19,571 bases of DNA from Xenococcus sp. MO_188.B8 (GTDB lineage: Bacteria; Cyanobacteriota; Cyanobacteriia; Cyanobacteriales; Xenococcaceae), in the NCBI GenBank assembly GCA_030065615.1, contig JASJDR010000158.1, forward strand, positions 1 to 19,571. The letters run 5' to 3'. Under the pieces are notes generated by a model. That model saw only the letters and a program-made list of their open reading frames with translations. It was not told the origin of the DNA and made no database searches. Every line of letters starts with the position of its first letter. Within the stretch, counting starts at the first letter, position 1. Shown piece after piece: positions 3,438-19,011 of this stretch. The position numbers and the translations under genes were made by a program.

Positions 3438-3824
3438 TTACCAGATAAGATCAACATCATAGAGAGAAAACTTTTCATCTGCTGTAATGATCGGCAGATT
3501 TTTAATTCTCCCTTGAGCAATTAAAAGGCGATCGAATGGGTCTTTGTGGTGATTCTGTAAATTACTAATTTCAAGAACATCGTTTATGCCAATAGAGAGA
3601 CGAACAAAATCATAATGCTGAACGCGATCTGGAATGTATGATTTTGCCGGTTCGGGTAAAGGAAGTTTGCCAAGCTGGTATTTAATCACAATCTCCCATG
3701 CACTAACCACACTGAAAAAGACAATATTTTCAGGATTGCTGATGATAGAACGGGCTGTAGCTGAAAGCTTGTCGTCATCAGTGACCCACCAGAGAAAGGC
3801 GTTAGTATCTAAAAGTACCTGCAT
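3438..3824 (-). CDS. vapC: PIN-domain toxin, VapC-type (type II toxin-antitoxin)
   Basis: 128 aa. N-terminal LLDTNAFLWW with the first PIN acidic residue, SVVSAWEIVIK, and C-terminal DPFDRLLIAQ...ITAD. This is the typical VapC layout. It lies 8 nt downstream of a small antitoxin-like ORF. Confidence 0.9.
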   Translation of the reverse strand: MQVLLDTNAFLWWVTDDDKLSATARSIISNPENIVFFSVVSAWEIVIKYQLGKLPLPEPAKSYIPDRVQHYDFVRLSIGINDVLEISNLQNHHKDPFDRLLIAQGRIKNLPIITADEKFSLYDVDLIW

Positions 3825-4331: not shown

Positions 4332-7286
4332 CTATATAGAAATCCCTTGACACGGTACTGAAATCTCATACTCCCCTTGGTCTTTCTCCAGCCAGTTACT
4401 AAAGATTTCCTCACGATCGCTGATAGATCGCTTGACACCAGAGTAGTAAGATTCTCGATTTCCTCGACTGCCGTATCTTCCGCGATAGGTTAATTTAACT
4501 CCCAGTTTTCTCAAGAGTGATTGAGCCGCCGTAATCGGATTCGATTCTGGCGAAATCCAGACACCGAGTATCGCTTTGATGTCATAGCGAAGAGCCACGA
4601 TTTTGTTAAACCAGTCCTCTAAGTCAGATTTAGAGAAAGTTTTCTCCTCGCCAAAGAATTGATTAATCTCCAGAGCCTCTAGAGCCAGGATTTTACTCGT
4701 GATCAAGTCTCGGTTCAAATCTGGAGTAAACAGAGCGCGCGCCTTGTCCTTCTCTGGCGGATGGTCTGCCAGTTGATTAAGTCTCTTGGAGTCCCGATGA
4801 TTTAAAAAAGCTCTGCCGACGGTCAAGAAATAGTGCAGCCGTAATTGGCTATACCAGCCCTTATCATCCTTCTCGATCAGTTCTGGGGTACATTCAACCC
4901 CATATTTCTTCTCGATCACCGCTTTCTTCAGGATCTGTTTTTCCGCTACAGATAACGAGTGTTTCTCTTGCAGCTTCTTGAGCTGACGCTCATCAATGTT
5001 GGGGCGTAAACTTGTCTCGATTCTTTCCTCCTCGTAGGCTTCCTCTTTGATGATGCCAATGCTCTCCTTGATCTCATCGCAGTAAGCCAAGGGGTTGATC
5101 GTCCGCTCTCTGGTATATCCCTCACGGATTAGCTTGTCGATAATCGTACCCTTATATTGATACATCCCTTGATTGACCACACAGGCACGACGCGACCAAT
5201 AGATTAAGGACTCTTGACTAAAATTCTGGTCAAGGTTGTCAAAGTCTAGCTCTGAAAGGTCGGCCGCCGTTAAACGTTGAATGTTGACCCTCGCTATTTT
5301 CTCCTGGGTTTTTAAGAGGGACGATGGCGAAGTTTCCCCCGCTCCCACAAAGGACAGCCCCCGCTCTGGAGCATAAAGATATCGGGGTACATCATCACGA
5401 ACCCTTTCCATGGTCTGAACCACAGCATCAACAGTCTGCACCCCACTAGCCAAACAAAGTACAGCATCAAAATGACCTTTAACGTCGATTGATAACCCTG
5501 TCTCAAGAGAAGGGCTAGCCAGAACGAGATCGTATTGACTAACAACATCATTAATGTGTTCCACACAACGAAAAGCAGGGTGAGTGTGATCAGCGATTGA
5601 TTCTCCATCGATTCTTAAGATTTTTTTATCGGGAAAACGTGATTTAAATAATTCCTCTAGATTTTGGGTGGACCAGCGACTAGATTTTTTTTGTGCCCCC
5701 AGAGCCAGATAAATTTTTTGATTGGCTTCTAGTTGGGTAAAGGCGATATCAATCAGATGTTTTTGCTCCTCGACGACAAATAGTTTTCGTTTGCCTTGAT
5801 TGGGGTTGAAATAATTCTTAACAATATGCGTTTCCACCTCACGACCGACTAAAGCCTGGACATATTGGATCGCCATGGGGGACAAGTCCGCATCAGAGAG
5901 ATAGATTTTCCCCCCTGTGTTAATCACCGTCTGTAGAGTCTCCTTGAGAGTATTCAGGATCTTGATTCTGTTATCTTTACAAGTCGATGAGTTCAACAGA
6001 TGCCAGAAGACTTGTTCACACTCATCGAGGATCACGATCGCCTCTGACCAGTCCGTCGGTCTAATTCTGGCTTTGGAGAATGGATGTAATGAATCTATAC
6101 ATAGCCCATAGCCTAAGATTCCCCCCGTCTCGCTGTCGCGAATTTCTTCAATGTGATCAATGCCGAATCTCTCGCATAATGTCCTGGTTAATTGGATACG
6201 GTGAGTAACCAGCAGAACAGGTATACCTTTCTGGTTTGCTTCTTGTACTATCTGAGTTAAACTCTCGGTTTTTCCTGTGCCCTTGGCACTCTGTAAGCCA
6301 ATGAGTTGAGCCGTTTGGGGAATCTCTAACTTGCCCAGATATCGCTGGTTGACTTTTTGGTTCACTAAGGGATTAAGATCCGTTAGAGCCTGTAGCTTAA
6401 AATCCGCTAGGCTAACCGCGTTATCGATGAGGTGTTGAAAATAGATTGACCCACGGGCATATAAAAGGTCATCTACCCCTTTAAATTTACTAGACCACTG
6501 AATTACACTTACCTTTGCCCCCTCCCGTTCTAGAAGCCATCCTGTTCGGTTGAGAGCTTTTCTGACATGCTTAATTGTCTTCGGCTTTTCGTCAGAATCA
6601 AAAGCCAAATAAATCTGTCTATTTGGTGCCAAAGCCTTTAGCTCAGGGATTAGCTGGTGAAAGTCTCCTAGCTTTTTCGCACCGTTCCAAACCCCAGGAA
6701 GTCCGATCGCCAAGCAACCCTCTGATACCAATGAGGATGCCTTTTTCGCCCCCTCCGTAATAAAGAGGGGGATTTGAGAATTAGCGCGAGCATCTTCCCA
6801 GAAAGAGACACAAGAGGTAACAGAGAGCCTCGATACCCCCCACCGATCACATATGGCGTTAGCAGTTTCTTGACCTATCTGGGGAGCGAATACTCGTGTC
6901 GGCGTTTTGGGGGGAGTCTCGTACTTAATCTTTTTTTGTCTGGAGAGATCATAACGGGGGCGATCGGGCTTGAAACAACCCCACTCAGATAAAGAATTTG
7001 ATAATAAATCAACCCCTGAAAACCACCAGCCACCTTCATAACAATGCTCATATTTTTTCAAGAAACGACTGCGAACTACTCCGCCATTGCGACGGTCGGA
7101 GTCGGGCAAAGCAAAAAATAGCCTCTCGTGGGGTTCATATTCGGACAGCGAAGAAAAATTAAGTTTAATTATTTCTTCAGATATCCCACTCTGTAAAAGC
7201 TCTGTGCAGTGTTGTTCAGTAAGGCTAGAATAAACACTTGAAAAGACCTCTGTAGTTGGTCTACAATCATCAGTAAAATTACTCAT
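4332..7286 (-). CDS. Plasmid replication protein with an N-terminal Toprim/primase-like domain (DUF3854-like) and a P-loop helicase domain (CyRepA-type)
   Basis: 984 aa. Toprim-like ITEGAKKASSL...GLPGVWNG and YLAFDSDEKPKT. Walker A is SAKGTGKTESL and Walker B is VILDECEQV. The architecture matches what I recall of the cyanobacterial plasmid Rep family described for Synechocystis plasmids. Family assignment is from memory, not from a search. Confidence 0.85.
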   Translation of the reverse strand: MSNFTDDCRPTTEVFSSVYSSLTEQHCTELLQSGISEEIIKLNFSSLSEYEPHERLFFALPDSDRRNGGVVRSRFLKKYEHCYEGGWWFSGVDLLSNSLSEWGCFKPDRPRYDLSRQKKIKYETPPKTPTRVFAPQIGQETANAICDRWGVSRLSVTSCVSFWEDARANSQIPLFITEGAKKASSLVSEGCLAIGLPGVWNGAKKLGDFHQLIPELKALAPNRQIYLAFDSDEKPKTIKHVRKALNRTGWLLEREGAKVSVIQWSSKFKGVDDLLYARGSIYFQHLIDNAVSLADFKLQALTDLNPLVNQKVNQRYLGKLEIPQTAQLIGLQSAKGTGKTESLTQIVQEANQKGIPVLLVTHRIQLTRTLCERFGIDHIEEIRDSETGGILGYGLCIDSLHPFSKARIRPTDWSEAIVILDECEQVFWHLLNSSTCKDNRIKILNTLKETLQTVINTGGKIYLSDADLSPMAIQYVQALVGREVETHIVKNYFNPNQGKRKLFVVEEQKHLIDIAFTQLEANQKIYLALGAQKKSSRWSTQNLEELFKSRFPDKKILRIDGESIADHTHPAFRCVEHINDVVSQYDLVLASPSLETGLSIDVKGHFDAVLCLASGVQTVDAVVQTMERVRDDVPRYLYAPERGLSFVGAGETSPSSLLKTQEKIARVNIQRLTAADLSELDFDNLDQNFSQESLIYWSRRACVVNQGMYQYKGTIIDKLIREGYTRERTINPLAYCDEIKESIGIIKEEAYEEERIETSLRPNIDERQLKKLQEKHSLSVAEKQILKKAVIEKKYGVECTPELIEKDDKGWYSQLRLHYFLTVGRAFLNHRDSKRLNQLADHPPEKDKARALFTPDLNRDLITSKILALEALEINQFFGEEKTFSKSDLEDWFNKIVALRYDIKAILGVWISPESNPITAAQSLLRKLGVKLTYRGRYGSRGNRESYYSGVKRSISDREEIFSNWLEKDQGEYEISVPCQGISI
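6836..6852 (+). repeat. Copy 2 of the 17-nt repeat, inside the rep coding sequence
   Basis: CCCCCCACCGATCACAT. On the gene strand it encodes ..CDRWG.. of the Rep protein. The 20-mer ATACCCCCCACCGATCACAT (6833-6852) is identical to 9394-9413. Confidence 0.9.
7238..7267 (+). promoter_or_regulatory. Candidate promoter antisense to the 5' end of the rep gene
   Basis: TTGAAA (7238-7243), an 18-nt spacer, then TACAAT (7262-7267) on the plus strand. It lies inside the first codons of the minus-strand rep ORF. Confidence 0.35.
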
Positions 7287-8509: not shown

Positions 8510-8608
8510 TTAAATGTAAATGTTGGTCTGCGATAAGATATGAGCCAAGTGCGTCAGTGAACCATCAAGTATTTGGGTTCAGTCTCATCCAGTAATGGAG
8601 TTCAAGAA

Positions 8609-9181
8609 ATGGTTACTAACCCCACCAAGGAAAAAATATCTTTTGAAGAATATCTAAATTATGACGATGGTACAGATAACCGTTATGAATTGGTGGATGG
8701 AGAATTAGTAGTAATGAACCCGCCAGCTAAAAGACATTTTAAAATCAGTCGTTTTTTAGTGAGACTGTTTGAGGAGTTTATATCTCGACAAAAATTAGAT
8801 ATTGAGGTGTTTACAGGTATCGGAGTAAGAACGGGGTCAAATAAAGCTCGTATCCCTGATGTTAGCGTGATTGAAGGTGAAGTATGGCGCAGTATCCCTG
8901 ATGATGCCTCGGCAGTAGTTCAAGTACCCCTGATGCTAGCTGTGGAAGTAGTAAGCGCAGGTGCGGAACAGAGAGAAAGAGACTATACCGATAAAGCGAT
9001 AGAGTATCAAAATACAGGAATTCCTGAATACTGGATTGTTGACCCCATCGAGCAAAAAATAACAGTCTTGATGTTAGACAAGGGGAGTTACACCAAAACT
9101 GTATATATGGTCGATGAAGCGTTAAAGAGTGCGACATTCCCAGGATTAAAGGTAACGGCGGGTGAAATAATATCTCCGTGA
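8609..9181 (+). CDS. Uma2-family (DUF820) restriction-endonuclease-fold protein
   Basis: Motifs are FEEYLNYDDGTDNRYELVDGELVVM, IPDVSVI, LAVEVVS...D and EYWIVDP. The start was moved from the track's TTG 8573 to ATG 8609, which has GGAG 8 nt upstream. Confidence 0.85.
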   Translation: MVTNPTKEKISFEEYLNYDDGTDNRYELVDGELVVMNPPAKRHFKISRFLVRLFEEFISRQKLDIEVFTGIGVRTGSNKARIPDVSVIEGEVWRSIPDDASAVVQVPLMLAVEVVSAGAEQRERDYTDKAIEYQNTGIPEYWIVDPIEQKITVLMLDKGSYTKTVYMVDEALKSATFPGLKVTAGEIISP

Positions 9182-10181: not shown

Positions 10182-10823
10182 ATGACCAGAATTATTAGCG
10201 TCCTCAACCAAAAGGGAGGCAGTGGAAAAACCACTATATCAAGCAATCTAGCTCATGCGATCGCTCTTGATGGTCACAAGGTTTTGCTAGTCGATTCAGA
10301 TCCTCAAGGCAGTCTGAGAGATTGGAATGAAGCAAACGGAGGGGAATTATTACCCGTCCTTGGATTGGATAGAGAGACATTACCCAAGGATCTAAAAGCA
10401 GTATCGGATGGCTATGATTACGTGATTATCGACGGCGCGCCACAGATAGCCAAGATGTCAGCAGCAGCAGTCAAAGCAGCTAATTTAGTACTTATCCCCG
10501 TTCAACCTAGTCCTTACGATATTTGGGCTTGTGCGGATTTAGTGGATATCATTACTGCCAGACAAGAGGTTACAGAAGGTTCACCACTGGCTTACTTTAT
10601 AATCAGTAGAGCTATTAAAAACACCAAGCTTGGTAATGAAATAAAACAAGCATTGGGAGATTATGAGCTTCCAATTATGAAGACATCTACTACTCAAAAA
10701 GTTGCCTATCCCACCACCGCAGCCGAAGGGACAACAGTATTTAGCGAACTTGGATGTAGTGCAGCTAAAGAAATTAGTGCAATCAAAACTGAAGTCATGG
10801 AGATTTTAAACTATGGTGCTTAA
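10182..10823 (+). CDS. parA: ParA-family partition ATPase (small, type Ib-like)
   Basis: The deviant Walker A is LNQKGGSGKTT. Other motifs are VLLVDSDPQGS and YVIIDGAP. It is 213 aa and is followed by an overlapping small DNA-binding gene. Confidence 0.92.
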   Translation: MTRIISVLNQKGGSGKTTISSNLAHAIALDGHKVLLVDSDPQGSLRDWNEANGGELLPVLGLDRETLPKDLKAVSDGYDYVIIDGAPQIAKMSAAAVKAANLVLIPVQPSPYDIWACADLVDIITARQEVTEGSPLAYFIISRAIKNTKLGNEIKQALGDYELPIMKTSTTQKVAYPTTAAEGTTVFSELGCSAAKEISAIKTEVMEILNYGA

Positions 10824-13017: not shown

Positions 13018-13611
13018 ATGCTCCTCGGTTATCATCGCGTCAGCACTAAAGATCAAAGTCCACAACTTCAGATTGATGCTCTGCAAGAATATGGTTGTGA
13101 ACGATTCTATTCTGATGTGGTCAGTGGGGCAAAAGCGTCGCGTCCTGGTCTTGACGAGATGCTCAAAGAAGCCCGACCCAAAGATGTCATCGTTGTCTGG
13201 AAACTTGACCGCCTGGGGCGATCTCTCAAGCATCTGGTTGATCTGGTTGGAGAACTCAATGAACGTAAAATCGGATTGAAAAGTCTCAACGACCCTATCG
13301 ACACCACTACCCCTCAAGGAATGCTGGTGTTTAACATCTTTGCTGCCTTGGGAGAGTTTGAGCGCGAACTGATACGCGAGCGTACTAATGCGGGATTAGC
13401 CGCCGCTAGAGCCAGCGGCAGAGTCGGTGGACGTAAACCTGGACTCTCGCCAGATGCTGAACGTAAAGCTCGTATCGCTGCCTCCTACTATGAAGAAGGC
13501 ATGACCATAAAGAAGATTCTGACTGACTTGAGTATATCGAGACGGACACTCTACAAGTATCTTGACCATCGTGGCGTGAAAACTAGAGCTTACAAAAAGC
13601 AAAGCGATTAA
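13018..13611 (+). CDS. Serine recombinase (resolvase/invertase family)
   Basis: 197 aa. The catalytic-Ser motif is GYHRVSTKDQ. Other motifs are VWKLDRLGRS and FAALGEFERELIRERT. The C-terminal HTH reads ISRRTLYKYL. Confidence 0.92.
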   Translation: MLLGYHRVSTKDQSPQLQIDALQEYGCERFYSDVVSGAKASRPGLDEMLKEARPKDVIVVWKLDRLGRSLKHLVDLVGELNERKIGLKSLNDPIDTTTPQGMLVFNIFAALGEFERELIRERTNAGLAAARASGRVGGRKPGLSPDAERKARIAASYYEEGMTIKKILTDLSISRRTLYKYLDHRGVKTRAYKKQSD

Positions 13612-13774
13612 GTGTGACGACCCAAAATCATAATCGGCTCAATAGAAAAATTTTTGAAGCAGACAATTCTAAATATCCAATCCAAATCCAAAAGATGTAA
13701 GATGTTTAGCAGCTTTTAGAATAATTTTGTAAGATTAAAGCAGAAATAATACTTACAAACTTAATCATTGATAT

Positions 13775-14209
13775 ATGAGTCATGAGTTATTAACTGCCCA
13801 AGCCTTATTGAATATTGCTTTAGGTGGAATCGTAGGAAACGCTGCAAGTGATGGTGTCAGAAAATTAGGAAAACAATTATGGCAGAGAATAAGAAACCGT
13901 TTGTTGCAAAATCAACCCACTATAGAAGCAGAAATAGTTAATTTTGAACAAAGCCCTATTGCAGAGAATACAAAACTGCTAGAAGATTTTCTTCAAGTCG
14001 AAATGCACAAAGACAAAGAATTTGCCGAAGCAATTAGCAATTTAGGCAGGGAAATTTCTCATGCTAATGGAGGTAGTATAACTAATAAAAATATTAAAGC
14101 AGAAGGTAATGCGGTTGCTGCTGCAATGATAGATGCACCGAATTCTAGAATAGGAGGATCGGATAATCATTATCACTTGGGAAAGGAACAAGCCCAGATG
14201 AAATTCTAG
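13775..14209 (+). CDS. Helical N-terminal module (144 aa) that is probably the N-terminus of the downstream STAND NTPase
   Basis: ORF track, frame 2. It overlaps by 43 nt the frame-1 reading frame that carries the NB-ARC domain. No catalytic motif was recognised. Confidence 0.65.
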   Translation: MSHELLTAQALLNIALGGIVGNAASDGVRKLGKQLWQRIRNRLLQNQPTIEAEIVNFEQSPIAENTKLLEDFLQVEMHKDKEFAEAISNLGREISHANGGSITNKNIKAEGNAVAAAMIDAPNSRIGGSDNHYHLGKEQAQMKF

Positions 14210-16701
14210 AGACTATTCATAGAATACAACGGGCTAATTCTCAAACTTCTGTTTCTACAAATATTTATACTAACCCACCGAATTTAGAAAACTGGGTAGA
14301 AAGAAAACAAGAAATAGAGACGATTAAAGCTTGGTTAAATAATCCACAAATTACTACAGTAGGAATTACTCAAGCTAATACTTTAGGAATTCAAGGTTTG
14401 GGTGGTGTAGGCAAGTCTGCTTTAGCTGCTTATTTGTATCATTCTCTAGATTTTGAAGCTAAATTCTGGGCTGATGTTAGTTTAAAACCAGATTTTACAG
14501 TTTTTGCCGAACAAGCAATTAGAGCGTTAGGAGGAAGAGTTTTTTATCCTATTGATGTAACTCAATTAATAAATAATTTACTTCACCTATTAAGTCAGCA
14601 TCGTTGTTTATTAGTAGTTGATAACTTAGAAACTCTTTTAGACAATAATAGAAATTGGCAAGATGAAAACTACGAGCAATTTTTTAATTGTTGGCAACAA
14701 CAGGGTATAAACAGTACTCTCTTAATTACTACTCAAGACAAACCGAAATGTTTTCCAGGGTTACAACAATGGTATTCCTTGGGAGGAATGAAACTTGAAG
14801 AAGGAATGAGCTTACTTAACAAATTAGCCATCAAAGGAACATCAAAAGAACTTAAGACATTTGTTAAATATGTAGATGGGCATCCTTTAACTATTAAATT
14901 AGTAGCTGGATATCTAAATGAATATTGCGACGGCGAGTTAAACCAGGTTACAGAATTAGGTCTAGAACAGTTCGATTTAGCTTACGTAGAAGCAGAAGGA
15001 TTACATCGTAATAAACAAGATGCTCGTCTATCTTGGATTATTCAGCAACACTTAAACAAACTGAATTTAGAACAATTAGAATTTTTGATTAATTTAAGCG
15101 TATATCGTTTGCCTTTTAATCGCAAAGCAGCAAATTATATATGGGGTAAGTCAGAAATAAATGGCTCTGTAATCCCAAAAAAACTACAAGAATTTTGTAA
15201 TCGTTCTTTGCTCATTAAAACTAGAGATAATAAATTTCAATTTGAGTCTCTAGTACAAAGATATATTCAAAAGCAAGTCAGCAATTTTACTAATGCTCAC
15301 AATAAAGCTATCGAATATTATATAGCTTCTTTCAAAAGTGAAGAAAATTGGCAAAATCTAGAAGATATTAAAGAATATCTAGAAACAATACATCACTACA
15401 ATGAATTAAAAGAATACGCTTTAGCTAATGAAGTATTGTGCCAATGTCAAGATTTTCTGATGTTAAAAGGTCATTATGCAATTTTAGTTGAAGCTCTTCA
15501 AGATATTGTAGTTGAATGGAAAAATATTGATAACAATAATGATTCAAACTTTGCTTATGCACTAAATTTATTAGGATGTTCACATATTCGTTTAGGGAAC
15601 TATTCCCAAGCAATTGAATATTGCCAAGAGTCTTTTAATATTTTCCAAGAAATCAATAGTATATACGGAATGATAAGGTCTCTAGGAAATATAGCAGGTA
15701 TTTTTGTATCTTTAGATAAATATCAACAAGCGAAAAACTGTGTTCTCCAATCATTAGAGATTCAGCAAAACATTGATGAGAATCCTGATAGAGCGAAGTC
15801 TTTAAATACTCTAGGGATAATTTGCAGGAAACTTGGAGAGTTTGATGCTGCTATCAACTATTTTAATCAATCATTAGTAATTCTTCAAAATTTTCAAGAG
15901 AGATACTTTGAATCAATTGCTTTGAATAACATAGGAGACACTAATTTAGTAATTAATAATATAGATGATGCAATAGAAAATTATCAAAGGGCATATAATA
16001 TTCAACAAGAAATTGGCGATAGAGATGGTATTGCCAGAAGCAAAAGCTCTCTTGGAAATGCTTATCTTAAAATCGGTGATTTTAGACGAGCTATAGAATT
16101 ATTTCAAGAATCTTTGTTTATTAAACAACAAATTGGCTCAAAACCTGGTGAAGCAGTAGCATTGGGAAGTTTGGGGGATGCTCATTATTTTTCTGGGGAG
16201 TATGAAAGAGCAATTGATTGCTATGAGCAATGTTTAAGCATTCAACAGAATATGGGCGAAATTTCCAATGTCAGTCAAACGTTAGGAAAGTTGGGCAACA
16301 CTTTAGGTCTTTTGAAACAATATGAAGATGCCATTGCTCGCTTTGAACAATCACTATCTATTTCACAACAAATTGGCGACGATAAATGTGCAGGTACAAC
16401 GTTAAATAACTTAGGTGATATATTCTATAAATTAGGTAGGTATGATAGCGCAATTAAATATTATTACGATTCATTGGATGCTAAACAAACTGCTAGACAA
16501 AAAATTGGAAATACTCACATTCTGGATGAACCTATTGCAAGTACTTGGTTCAATATAGGAGATACCCAAACACAATTACAGCGATCTTTTGAAGCTATAT
16601 CAGCATATAGAAACGCAAAAAGAATCTATCAAATTTTAGAACTAGAAGAAAATATAAAAGATTGCGATCGTGCTATTCAAGAATTAGAAGATATTGAGTA
16701 A
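14167..16701 (+). CDS. STAND NTPase with NB-ARC (AP-ATPase) and TPR repeats; this reading frame has no usable start of its own
   Basis: Frame 1 is open from 14167. The P-loop is TLGIQGLGGVGKSALA and Walker B is CLLVVDNLE. The RNBS-B-like motif is LLITTQDK and the GLPL-like motif is DGHPLTIKLVAGYL. About nine 40-aa TPR units of the LNNLG..Y...G.Y..AI.YY..SL type follow. The track's TTG 14398 start falls inside the P-loop strand, so the true N-terminus must lie upstream. Confidence 0.85.
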   Translation, partial: SLSLGKGTSPDEILETIHRIQRANSQTSVSTNIYTNPPNLENWVERKQEIETIKAWLNNPQITTVGITQANTLGIQGLGGVGKSALAAYLYHSLDFEAKFWADVSLKPDFTVFAEQAIRALGGRVFYPIDVTQLINNLLHLLSQHRCLLVVDNLETLLDNNRNWQDENYEQFFNCWQQQGINSTLLITTQDKPKCFPGLQQWYSLGGMKLEEGMSLLNKLAIKGTSKELKTFVKYVDGHPLTIKLVAGYLNEYCDGELNQVTELGLEQFDLAYVEAEGLHRNKQDARLSWIIQQHLNKLNLEQLEFLINLSVYRLPFNRKAANYIWGKSEINGSVIPKKLQEFCNRSLLIKTRDNKFQFESLVQRYIQKQVSNFTNAHNKAIEYYIASFKSEENWQNLEDIKEYLETIHHYNELKEYALANEVLCQCQDFLMLKGHYAILVEALQDIVVEWKNIDNNNDSNFAYALNLLGCSHIRLGNYSQAIEYCQESFNIFQEINSIYGMIRSLGNIAGIFVSLDKYQQAKNCVLQSLEIQQNIDENPDRAKSLNTLGIICRKLGEFDAAINYFNQSLVILQNFQERYFESIALNNIGDTNLVINNIDDAIENYQRAYNIQQEIGDRDGIARSKSSLGNAYLKIGDFRRAIELFQESLFIKQQIGSKPGEAVALGSLGDAHYFSGEYERAIDCYEQCLSIQQNMGEISNVSQTLGKLGNTLGLLKQYEDAIARFEQSLSISQQIGDDKCAGTTLNNLGDIFYKLGRYDSAIKYYYDSLDAKQTARQKIGNTHILDEPIASTWFNIGDTQTQLQRSFEAISAYRNAKRIYQILELEENIKDCDRAIQELEDIE
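14179..14185 (+). promoter_or_regulatory. Candidate -1 ribosomal frameshift heptamer G_GGA_AAG joining the two STAND segments
   Basis: The zero frame reads TTG GGA AAG, giving an X_XXY_YYZ pattern. It lies after the last -1-frame stop (TAA 14164-14166) and before the zero-frame stop (TAG 14207-14209). AGGAGG lies at 14152-14157. No convincing downstream structure was seen. It may instead be a 1-nt indel. Confidence 0.4.
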
Positions 16702-17247: not shown

Positions 17248-19011
17248 TTACCTACCTTCTTCTGGAATTTCTATTTTATATAAGTTCCTTACTCTCATCT
17301 CATTTAATGGGTTTTGCTTTGCTATTCTGATAAGTGCATTTTCAGTATTTTCTTTTATTGTTTGATATTTTTGAGAACTATCTTCATTTGTGCTTGCTAA
17401 ATTATTAAAAATCAAAAGCCCTTTTTTGATTTTATAAACCATATTTTTAGGGTTTGATATCATCCAATCATAGAGTTCATCCTCACTGAGCGAACTTAAA
17501 TAATTAAGGTGTTTTATACTCCATCCTTGAGTTCGTGCAATTTCATCAAGAATTTTATCAAGGTTAAAAATTTCTGAAGCACCTAAAATGTCTTTGATTT
17601 TACTGCGTAGGCTTGAGTTCTTTATCTCAGGTACTATCCAGAATTCATCTGGATCATCCTCAAGTAAAGCCTGTCTATGAAACCCTAAATAGTTTTCAAT
17701 ATAAGCAGATACGTCATCACCAAATTTCTCAAGAAAATTTATTGTATGATCAAATTGTGAAAGACTTATTTTACCTAAACTATCATCCAATACACCTCGC
17801 ATGGCTGATTTTATCTCATCTAAGTTTGGCTCAAATGAATTACGATAAAGTAGCCAAACACAACTAAGTTGAGCATCAGCATTTTTGCTCTGGTGGTCTT
17901 GATTGATTTTCTTTATTTCCTCTTTAAAAACTTGTTCATCTAAGTATCCATTCATAAATAGCCCAATAAGACAATCATCATAATTTTGTGGATAAAGAGT
18001 CAGCTTACGAGCAATTTCATTCCATTCTTCTTCCACTTCAGACAATTGTTGCTTCTTCTCATCATTTGATGAAAATGAATACCAAGTAGTATTTTTTATG
18101 CTCTTACTTATAAATGATAGAGATAGATTATTTTCTGAATTAAAGAATGCCCAACAAAATACCGTAAGTTTTACTAATACTTCTTTTTGTAAACTAGGTT
18201 CAGTATCTTTGATCAAGTCCCATATCTTATCTTTACCCCACTGAAGTTTTTTAAATATACGAATATTCGATATATTTAGAATACGAAGAACATCGAGCAG
18301 TTCCTCAAAATATGTATCTTGAGGTTTAAATACTACGGACAGATTATCTCTTATTGTGGGCTTGTATTCAATTTCCAGATCGACAATTTTTTCCCGATAC
18401 TTATTAAAATCTTTTAGCTCATCACCTTCTAGTGTTTTATAATTAAATATCAGGATAACCTTGCACCCTTTTCTATGACAAAGTTCGTCAACTAAGCCCA
18501 TTATCTGCTTTATAGTTAAATCTTTTTCTTTCCGCTCAATATCATCCAAACAAATAAGGTACTTATTGATAAGTCCATACTCAGCTAAATTAAGTATTGA
18601 AGAGAGTTGATTTGATTTAGGTAATATCTTTGCTATTTGTGAAAATGAACCCAGTGTTCTTAGAAAGTTTTTCCCTTTTGATTGTCCTCTAAGAATTAAC
18701 TCCCAAGTCTTATTTTCGTTTCTGGAATAGGCTTCAAGTTCACTAACAAAGTTCTCTGGAGGCTTTAATGGTTCACCCACAGAAAAAATCTTGGATTTTA
18801 ATTGTGATAAATCATGTAAACCAAATAATGAAACATAAGAATAAGCCGTTTGGTTTAGTGCTTTATTAGCCTTATTCTCTACTTTTTCCTGAACGTATTC
18901 GTCCCAAAAGTATGTTTTTCCAATACCCCATGCGCCTCTTAAAACAAGAACCGACAGTTTTTCATCATAAATAAATGAATTCAGTGTCTCTTCTATAATC
19001 GATTTATTCAT
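17248..19011 (-). CDS. KAP-family P-loop NTPase (587 aa)
   Basis: Walker A is LRGAWGIGKTYFW, the GxWGxGKT hallmark of KAP NTPases. Walker B is YLICLDDIERKE. I could not see the transmembrane insert described for many KAP members. The C-terminal ~400 aa have no recognised motif. Confidence 0.85.
   Translation of the reverse strand: MNKSIIEETLNSFIYDEKLSVLVLRGAWGIGKTYFWDEYVQEKVENKANKALNQTAYSYVSLFGLHDLSQLKSKIFSVGEPLKPPENFVSELEAYSRNENKTWELILRGQSKGKNFLRTLGSFSQIAKILPKSNQLSSILNLAEYGLINKYLICLDDIERKEKDLTIKQIMGLVDELCHRKGCKVILIFNYKTLEGDELKDFNKYREKIVDLEIEYKPTIRDNLSVVFKPQDTYFEELLDVLRILNISNIRIFKKLQWGKDKIWDLIKDTEPSLQKEVLVKLTVFCWAFFNSENNLSLSFISKSIKNTTWYSFSSNDEKKQQLSEVEEEWNEIARKLTLYPQNYDDCLIGLFMNGYLDEQVFKEEIKKINQDHQSKNADAQLSCVWLLYRNSFEPNLDEIKSAMRGVLDDSLGKISLSQFDHTINFLEKFGDDVSAYIENYLGFHRQALLEDDPDEFWIVPEIKNSSLRSKIKDILGASEIFNLDKILDEIARTQGWSIKHLNYLSSLSEDELYDWMISNPKNMVYKIKKGLLIFNNLASTNEDSSQKYQTIKENTENALIRIAKQNPLNEMRVRNLYKIEIPEEGR

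Follow-up and report, generated by a model that had tools for sequence, protein, structure and literature searches.

A probable programmed −1 ribosomal frameshift linking a Bell-like short protein to an NLR-like STAND NTPase in Xenococcus sp. MO_188.B8 and related loci

We analyzed a 19,571-nt stretch of DNA from Xenococcus sp. MO_188.B8 (contig JASJDR010000158.1; hereafter, the window, whose positions are used as coordinates) and, within it, the locus at 13775-16701 of the forward strand, where a short open reading frame (ORF), ORF1, overlaps the reading frame of a large NTPase. This locus is most likely one recoded gene, neither two genes nor a broken one, in which programmed −1 ribosomal frameshifting (PRF) on the heptamer G_GGA_AAG yields both a short and a long isoform.

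ORF1 runs in the zero frame (frame 2) from ATG 13775 to TAG 14207-14209 and encodes 144 aa; in the public annotation of the Xenococcus sp. MO_188.B8 metagenome-assembled genome (MAG) it is the hypothetical protein P0075. Frame 1, which is the −1 frame, has its final stop at TAA 14164-14166, the 5' limit of the shift window, and is open from 14167 to TAA 16699-16701. Inside the 43-nt overlap of the two frames, the zero-frame codons TTG GGA AAG (14177-14185) form an in-register X_XXY_YYZ heptamer, G_GGA_AAG at 14179-14185, the putative shift site. A conceptual −1 slip at this point joins ...HYHLGK to GTSPDEIL... and gives a 975-aa product (137 + 838 aa), with LGK followed by GTSPDEILETIHR as the predicted transframe peptide and HYHLGKGTSPDE as the junction-spanning stretch. 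The 838-aa part contributed by the −1 frame (14185-16701) would comprise a linker (GTSPDEIL...TNPPNLENW), an NB-ARC domain, and TPR repeats. The original prediction had given the coordinates of both frames, the start-less stretch before TTG 14398, the heptamer past the last −1-frame stop and within the overlap, and a 975-aa slip product alongside the 144-aa ORF; all of these held when rechecked on the sequence. A terminator and promoter scan around the locus, uninformative overall, revealed no terminator between the ORFs, and promoter-like matches were at chance level.

The NB-ARC and TPR assignment of the −1 ORF, proposed earlier from the letters alone, was borne out by Pfam, with an NB-ARC match of 33.5 bits (cut-off 23.5) at ~14368-14919 and TPR matches at ~15540-16490 (TPR_12, E = 6e-61). 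Judging by these domains, the NTPase belongs to the STAND proteins with NB-ARC and TPR and is bacterial NLR-like. PADLOC matched no described defence system (Avs, bNACHT, and others) and returned only generic TPR models, while ORF1 had no match there. The NB-ARC match begins at fusion residue 181 and profile position 5, upstream of the first canonical start codon of the −1 frame. That start, TTG 14398-14400, encodes the L of GIQG-L-GGVGKS and lies directly ahead of the P-loop GGVGKS (codons 14401-14418; with the TTG, 14398-14418); the public annotation starts the NTPase here, as the 767-aa protein P0002 beginning with MGGVGKS.

For comparison, we used DNA from 25 genome loci and 18 metagenome loci, in which both parts were placed by tblastn and frame walking. 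The source assemblies are independent and include Xenococcaceae, Hyella, Symploca, a Prochloraceae MAG, and many metagenomes. At every locus with both parts (~30 loci), the NTPase is in the −1 frame of an upstream ORF of ~135 aa. These loci hold 27 distinct homologous upstream ORFs, and in 23 of them GGGAAAG, AAAAAAG, or CCCAAAG stands in register within the last codons, while the same three heptamers occupy 4 of 3,480 inner codon positions. On these counts, the enrichment of the slip site at the ORF ends is far beyond chance. Besides the three heptamers, GGGAAAC occurs once. The X triplet swaps between G, A, and C, so that the encoded dipeptide varies (GK, KK, PK) while slipperiness is retained, as one would predict if the RNA signal, and not the protein, were under selection. 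The motifs C_CCA_AAG, G_GGA_AAG, and A_AAA_AAG are the most efficient −1 motifs in Escherichia coli (Sharma et al., PMC4066793). Orthologues forming single ORFs that differ by one base in the G/A run, or an unconserved heptamer, had been named by the original prediction as outcomes incompatible with programmed frameshifting; neither was found, and the tblastn comparison with relatives gave the opposite, a kept two-frame layout and a conserved heptamer.

In most loci, the zero-frame stop, usually TAA, follows 0-1 codons past the heptamer. The −1-frame stop is often immediately 5' of the heptamer, and the overlap is then only 13-16 nt and contains little else. In the window, the zero frame runs on for 7 codons to the stop TAG 14207-14209: the sequence reads GGGAAAG GAA CAA GCC CAG ATG AAA TTC TAG, compared with GGGAAAG GAT TAA GCC CAG in a typical relative. 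The unusually long 43-nt overlap is thus explained by the family-typical TAA one codon past the heptamer reading CAA in the window.

The region past the heptamer lacks start codons in relatives as well. In the loci scanned, the first ATG, GTG, or TTG of the NTPase frame is 24-143 codons past the heptamer (71 codons in the window). In most loci it comes after the conserved segment TSTNLxTxPPNLxNW, not far from the P-loop, and it is usually past the conserved ...SQVATSTNLITTPPNLDNWVER... segment. Because this first start is so far downstream, public gene calls of the homologues begin in or near the P-loop (MGGVGKS...), and it was the many homologues with such called starts that suggested that the split recurs. 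Nevertheless, the stretch between the heptamer and the first start evolves, by its substitution pattern, as a −1-frame coding sequence: downstream of the heptamer in 17 aligned relatives, the synonymous fraction of codon pairs differing by one base was 0.55 for the −1 frame, against zero-frame and +1-frame values of 0.24 and 0.09. Hence, the pre-P-loop region has no canonical start of its own, as had been claimed, and both the NB-ARC match and the −1-frame coding constraint reach into it.

These observations are difficult to reconcile with two ordinary adjacent genes, the NTPase being translated from TTG 14398, from a near-cognate codon, or by termination-reinitiation, and the heptamer being incidental. 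A start at TTG 14398 would remove the conserved pre-P-loop region, which matches NB-ARC from position 5 and shows coding constraint. In the window and in the loci L048 and L053, 71-110 codons separate the heptamer from the first canonical start, and the −1 frame is open throughout. Near-cognate codons, namely ATT, ATA, and CTA, do occur in the −1 frame past 14185; reinitiation, however, leaves unexplained why the best slippery heptamers are kept while the dipeptide varies between GK, KK, and PK, and the constant −1 offset is not explained either. The public annotation has two genes, and classical Bell/NLR pairs, to which we return below, consist of distinct genes, often with an overlap of a few bases (10.1101/2020.01.06.895854); one locus of the ORF1 family, L059, is such a pair. 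Yet the NTPase frame here has no copy of the motif that separate-gene pairs need. Overall, we consider two separate genes unlikely.

Another route to a fusion protein is RNA polymerase slippage on the A/G run, producing mRNAs one base longer or shorter that encode the fusion in one frame. Efficient transcriptional slippage in bacteria needs ~8-9 or more identical bases, whereas the window and many relatives hold a mere AAA beside GGG or CCC. About half of the family does have a run of 6-7 A (AAAAAAG, GAAAAAAAG), and A runs are a known route to transframe proteins (PMC5009743). What is conserved, though, is not the run length but the in-register X_XXA_AAG pattern, a signature of tandem tRNA re-pairing. 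This makes transcriptional slippage a very improbable explanation, and we infer that the slippage is ribosomal, giving both proteins in a set ratio.

The split could also have arisen by a 1-nt indel in the GGGAAAGG run, in a pseudogene or through an assembly error, that broke an uninterrupted Bell-NB-ARC-TPR gene. Some members of the family are clearly degenerate (L026, L039, L040, L004, and L037), and an uninterrupted homologue exists: a search with the conceptual fusion retrieved P0001 (loci L001-L003), which crosses the whole junction in a single frame with 67% identity. However, P0001 retains GAG GGA AAG, and the frame is regained via an indel ~25 nt further downstream. Since the G/A run is unchanged and the frame is restored downstream of it, P0001 represents a derived fusion rather than an ancestral state of which the window would hold a broken copy; it also shows that the fusion protein is viable as a product. 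Moreover, the same −1 split is present at ~30 of ~30 loci from independent assemblies and species and with different heptamers, both parts are under coding constraint, and in all 54 ORF1-homologue clusters the ORF terminates at an equivalent position. As the split recurs in dozens of assemblies with different heptamers, an indel, a pseudogene, or a sequencing error can be dismissed for practical purposes.

In L001, the heptamer is at L001:1424-1430 and the next −1-frame codons are GGG TGA. A −1 slip would therefore produce the short form, which amounts to an inverted, dnaX-like layout. The ORF of P0001 ends early, at residue 453, just past the winged-helix region and before any TPR. Immediately upstream of this in-frame fusion homologue there is a PhdYeFM antitoxin / YoeB toxin pair (L001:226-938).

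The short ORF is not confined to NTPases of the type found in the window. Searches with the ORF1 family profile retrieved, among distant members, P0133 (E = 2e-19), which ends with GAA AAA AAG CCT TAA and precedes an NB-ARC-TPR NTPase in the −1 frame (L055), but also two proteins upstream of other sensors. P0144 (E = 1e-9) ends with GAA AAA AAG TTG TAA, and the −1 frame then encodes an nSTAND1-pentapeptide NTPase open for 86 codons ahead of any start (L048). P0163 (E = 5e-7), from the Prochloraceae MAG, ends with GAA AAA AAG TAA and is followed by a −1-frame NACHT NTPase, open for 110 codons ahead of any start (L053). The same cassette before NB-ARC-TPR, nSTAND1-pentapeptide, and NACHT NTPases means that it is tied to the effector-like ORF and not to one sensor class.

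ORF1 resembles Bell-domain proteins in its size, its predicted helical domain, its tail, and its position upstream of an NLR-like NTPase. Its homologues form 54 clusters at 90%, all 89-145 aa and mostly 129-145 aa long, and most clusters terminate with [G/P/K]-K-(x)-stop. The family profile covers 103 representatives at 50% identity, nearly all of 120-150 aa, with G/N/Q-rich tails, many of which end with ...EKK. The AlphaFold2 (AF2) model, built from a 41-sequence alignment, has a Bell-like helical domain at residues 1-97 (13775-14065) with a hydrophobic N-terminal helix, the N-terminus being MSHELLTAQALLNIALGGIVG. The predicted helices are at 8-19, 26-46, 48-59, 63-79, and 81-97, with block-mean pLDDT of 71-91. 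From residue 101 on, pLDDT is below 50, and residues 101-137 (14075-14185; ...GGSITNKNIKAEGNAVAAAMIDAPNSRIGGSDNHYHLGK) constitute a predicted disordered C-terminal tail, a candidate BASS-like amyloid-signalling motif. The tail is conserved within the family and is, by eye, rich in G, N, A, and I.

No Pfam domain was matched by ORF1, and Foldseek comparison of the AF2 model with PDB gave nothing at E ≤ 0.001, the best matches being generic helical bundles. An HMM search against PDB sequences gave a weak partial match to 6g6o Ika8 at residues 18-53, which we judged uninformative. The Pfam, NCBIfam, and PADLOC collections as searched contain no Bell model. An indirect link is given by the ORF1-family profile, which reached P0203 (E = 6.5e-5), a distant member encoded in L059. 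In this classical pair, the tail ...MKQTNRDNSKGYQVKANQVSHIGD... recurs at the N-terminus of the adjacent NB-ARC-TPR protein (MKQSNRDNSKGYQTSANRVEHLGD...), and the similarity between the tail and the NLR N-terminus, used as a control, has z = 15.9. In contrast, among 18 loci of the PRF type that were tested, 16 have an NTPase-frame linker without detectable similarity to the tail (z ~0; 0.78 in the window), and the other two are marginal. In the absence of a tail copy in the linker, the sensor would gain the effector module only via the frameshift. The ~770-nt spacer between the Bell gene and the NLR of L059 (L059:3420-4060) contains a short unit repeated ~3 times, translated as ...GFSSRGLAVGV*Q*....

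In the proposed mechanism, ribosomes would initiate at ATG 13775 and translate a Bell-like helical domain of ~100 residues and a disordered tail of ~40 residues. Most of them would stop at TAG 14207 and release the 144-aa short isoform. A minority would slip by −1 on G_GGA_AAG, the P-site tRNA re-pairing with GGG instead of GGA and the A-site tRNA-Lys with AAA instead of AAG, and would then read the −1 frame to 16701, producing the 975-aa protein with the Bell-like module, tail, NB-ARC, and TPR.

What the two isoforms do is more tentative. We think it possible, though somewhat short of an even chance, that the long isoform is a rare sensor that nucleates the abundant short isoform into a membrane-damaging effector. 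Upon activation, the oligomerised long isoform would cluster its N-terminal modules and tails, and these would template the free short isoform, in an amyloid-like or other homotypic way, into a cell-death effector. Frameshifting would stand in for the duplicated amyloid motif on the NLR N-terminus of classical Bell/NLR pairs. Alternatively, frameshifting could merely set a low level of an all-in-one Bell-NLR protein, the short form being a by-product or a modulator. More speculatively still, a modular cassette consisting of a Bell-like ORF, V_VVA_AAG, and a stop could have been repeatedly coupled to different cyanobacterial STAND sensors, making a one-gene, inflammasome-like amplifier in which the fusion nucleates the free effector pool; some lineages might achieve the same via UGA read-through (L012 and L057, see below) or via the inverse, dnaX-like layout (L001).

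A number of observations weigh against programmed frameshifting, or against our reading of the proteins, and many of these concern stimulatory elements. The original prediction saw no convincing hairpin downstream; this needs correcting, as an imperfect hairpin is predicted at 14186-14240, with an AGCCC/GGGCU core 5-6 nt 3' of the heptamer (−14.2 kcal/mol, z = −3.0; 2 of 200 dinucleotide shuffles fold as well), and is a candidate stimulator. However, RNAalifold found no consensus structure over the downstream regions of 18 relatives, and there was no Rfam match in 13600-14600. The stems are lineage-specific, with a GC-rich stem 6 nt past the heptamer in some relatives and a different stem in others. 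A hand-picked stem was paired in 78% compared with 26-38% in slid controls, although the stem had been derived from the sequences scored, and the stem GUAGAAGU/ACUUCUAC has an apparent GUA/UAC to GUU/AAC compensation. We do not claim either of the two stems picked by eye, GCCCAGA/UCUGGGC and GUAGAAGU/ACUUCUAC, as a conserved stimulator, as they belong to different sublineages and were derived from these same sequences. In the A_AAA_AAG-TAA subgroup, the downstream sequence is AU-rich and unstructured, and the adjacent stop may be the sole context element.

Upstream, AGGAGG at 14153-14158 is a possible, though doubtful, internal Shine-Dalgarno-like (SD) stimulator; as had been stated, its distance is not optimal, 20 nt separating it from the heptamer. 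Among relatives, GGAGG occurs 15 or 21 nt upstream, several have GGCGG, GGGGG, or GGTGG instead, and AGGAGG also codes for a conserved Gly-Gly. An SD spacing of 15-21 nt exceeds the effective distance in the dnaX and IS911 work. Owing to this spacing and to the incomplete conservation, AGGAGG is not claimed as a stimulator. In hosts possessing tRNA-Lys(CUU), it would damp A_AAG slippage. The motifs of the family give ~0.3% frameshifting in E. coli without a stimulator and up to ~3.7% with the best 3' context (PMC4066793). By analogy, and unless there is a stimulator at work, we expect an efficiency of at most a few per cent.

The remaining points on this side concern the sites and the proteins. 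The site in the window is an atypical member of the family, having lost the nearby stop (TAA to CAA), and a few loci deviate from the canonical heptamers. L014, from Hyella patelloides LEGE 07179, reads G_GTA_AAG and so retains the A_AAG tetramer, while G_GGG_GAG is present in L033 and L038. The latter sites (L033:3396-3402 and L038:711-717) contain a five-G run within an intact two-frame layout, and could be either single-tRNA slip sites or decaying copies. The transframe product is one that we infer from the sequence. The membership of ORF1 in the Bell family is based on its features and on the family link rather than on a match to a curated model, and its tail is a candidate amyloid motif.

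Among the closest known systems, dnaX (tau/gamma) is a cellular gene that yields two N-terminally identical isoforms at an A_AAG-type site. The derived L001 shares its layout: the zero frame encodes the long form, and a ribosome slipping by −1 on the kept G_GGA_AAG would at once meet TGA. The window and almost all relatives have the opposite polarity, as there the slip is needed for the long form. The stimulators of dnaX are an SD sequence 10 nt upstream and a strong hairpin; such stimulators are not evident here. In OrfA/OrfAB of the IS3 family (IS911, IS3) and in retroviral Gag/Gag-Pol, a short ORF likewise ends just past an X_XXA_AAG-type heptamer, and a long −1-frame ORF without a functional start is made only as a fusion, the short product being expected in excess. 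Unlike these, the locus described here encodes no transposase or polymerase but a cell-death-effector-like module with a STAND/NLR sensor; neither a conserved pseudoknot or stem-loop nor a well-spaced SD sequence was found, and the zero-frame stop usually adjoins the heptamer. The heptamers found here are also the best IS motifs (PMC4066793). In CsoS2A/CsoS2B of alpha-carboxysomes and the phage tail chaperones G/GT, −1 PRF provides two co-functioning isoforms that share the N-terminus in one assembly (PMC5009743, PMC13581612), but the proteins and the biology are unrelated.

At the protein level, the nearest parallel is with the pairs of Bell/BASS proteins and NLRs in multicellular bacteria (10.1101/2020.01.06.895854). 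There, too, a protein of ~120-140 aa with a hydrophobic N-terminal helix, a small helical domain, and an unstructured C-terminal tail of ~25-40 residues rich in G, N, Q, V, and I is encoded immediately upstream of, and collinear with, a cyanobacterial NB-ARC/NACHT NTPase with repeats. The difference is that the NLR ORF here has neither a start nor a motif copy and would receive both the effector and the motif by frameshift fusion. The rare all-in-one Bell-NLR proteins, on the other hand, make no separate free effector. Analogous effector/NLR signalling is provided by Bab/Agp of E. coli (10.1101/2024.11.07.622273) and the fungal HET-S/NWD2, and the features of ORF1 fit Bab.

Several loci depart from the common layout. 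In L012 (Argonema antarcticum; TGA at L012:4379-4381) and L057 (TGA at L057:815-817), TGA ends the Bell-like ORF and NB-ARC continues in the same frame; stop-codon read-through may operate here in place of frameshifting, although this concerns no more than two loci, and chance alone would give an in-frame layout in one third. The tblastn result had initially been read as an in-frame fusion in L012, which was rejected when inspection revealed the in-frame TGA between the two parts. A conserved SPPSLKDW segment is present in this locus upstream of the annotated GTG start. In L026:4381-4405 and L039:3381-3405, a deletion from the heptamer position to approximately fusion residue 343 removes the entire P-loop half of NB-ARC and joins the upstream ORF to ...LLNKLAIQG... 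in the −1 frame. L040 has a stop within the P-loop (GIQG*GGVGKS), ~70 codons past the heptamer, L004 has an additional frameshift inside the upstream ORF (L004:442-445), and L051 is a degenerate copy with a deletion past the linker. In L037 (700-1480) and L043, unrelated sequence takes the place of the NTPase behind the upstream ORF; in L037 this may be a transposase-like ORF. Finally, some upstream ORFs carry a second in-register G_GGA_AAG near the 5' end, at a conserved A-G-K (codon 9 in L005, L009, L031, and L001; codon 21 in L053). A slip there would abort translation early, and the site may be incidental.

The 19.6-kb contig looks plasmid-like. It encodes a DUF3854 replication-type protein (4332-7286, reverse strand), ParA (10182-10823), and a serine resolvase (13018-13611, forward strand) 160 nt upstream of ORF1. 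In addition, there are a PIN-domain toxin (3438-3824, reverse strand), a Uma2 endonuclease (8573-9181, forward strand), and, just downstream of the NLR and convergent with it, a KAP-family P-loop NTPase (17248-19011, reverse strand). No tRNA genes were found on the contig. These neighbours, linked to defence and mobility, suggest a mobile defence cluster on a plasmid.

Few bacterial −1 PRF genes outside mobile elements are known. The 2016 recoding review (PMC5009743) covers dnaX, copA, and csoS2, and we found no NTPase or STAND case in it. Frameshifting is mentioned neither by Dyrka et al. (10.1101/2020.01.06.895854) nor in the Bab/Agp paper (10.1101/2024.11.07.622273), and a full-text literature search for the Bell domain, NLR, NACHT, or cyanobacteria together with frameshifting yielded nothing relevant. 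The mechanism and the protein families are each known already; what seems to be new is that they are combined, and how widely. Confirmation would make this the first case of recoding found in prokaryotes for NLR-type immunity or cell-death genes, with dozens of loci and three sensor classes involved. It would also mean that many NLR entries in the databases are mis-annotated, being N-terminally truncated proteins that start in the P-loop beside orphan hypothetical genes of 135 aa. For the cell, frameshifting would offer a fixed ratio of sensor to executioner with a guaranteed identical interaction module, and the arrangement bears on how amyloid or other homotypic NLR-effector signalling may evolve between all-in-one and two-gene architectures.

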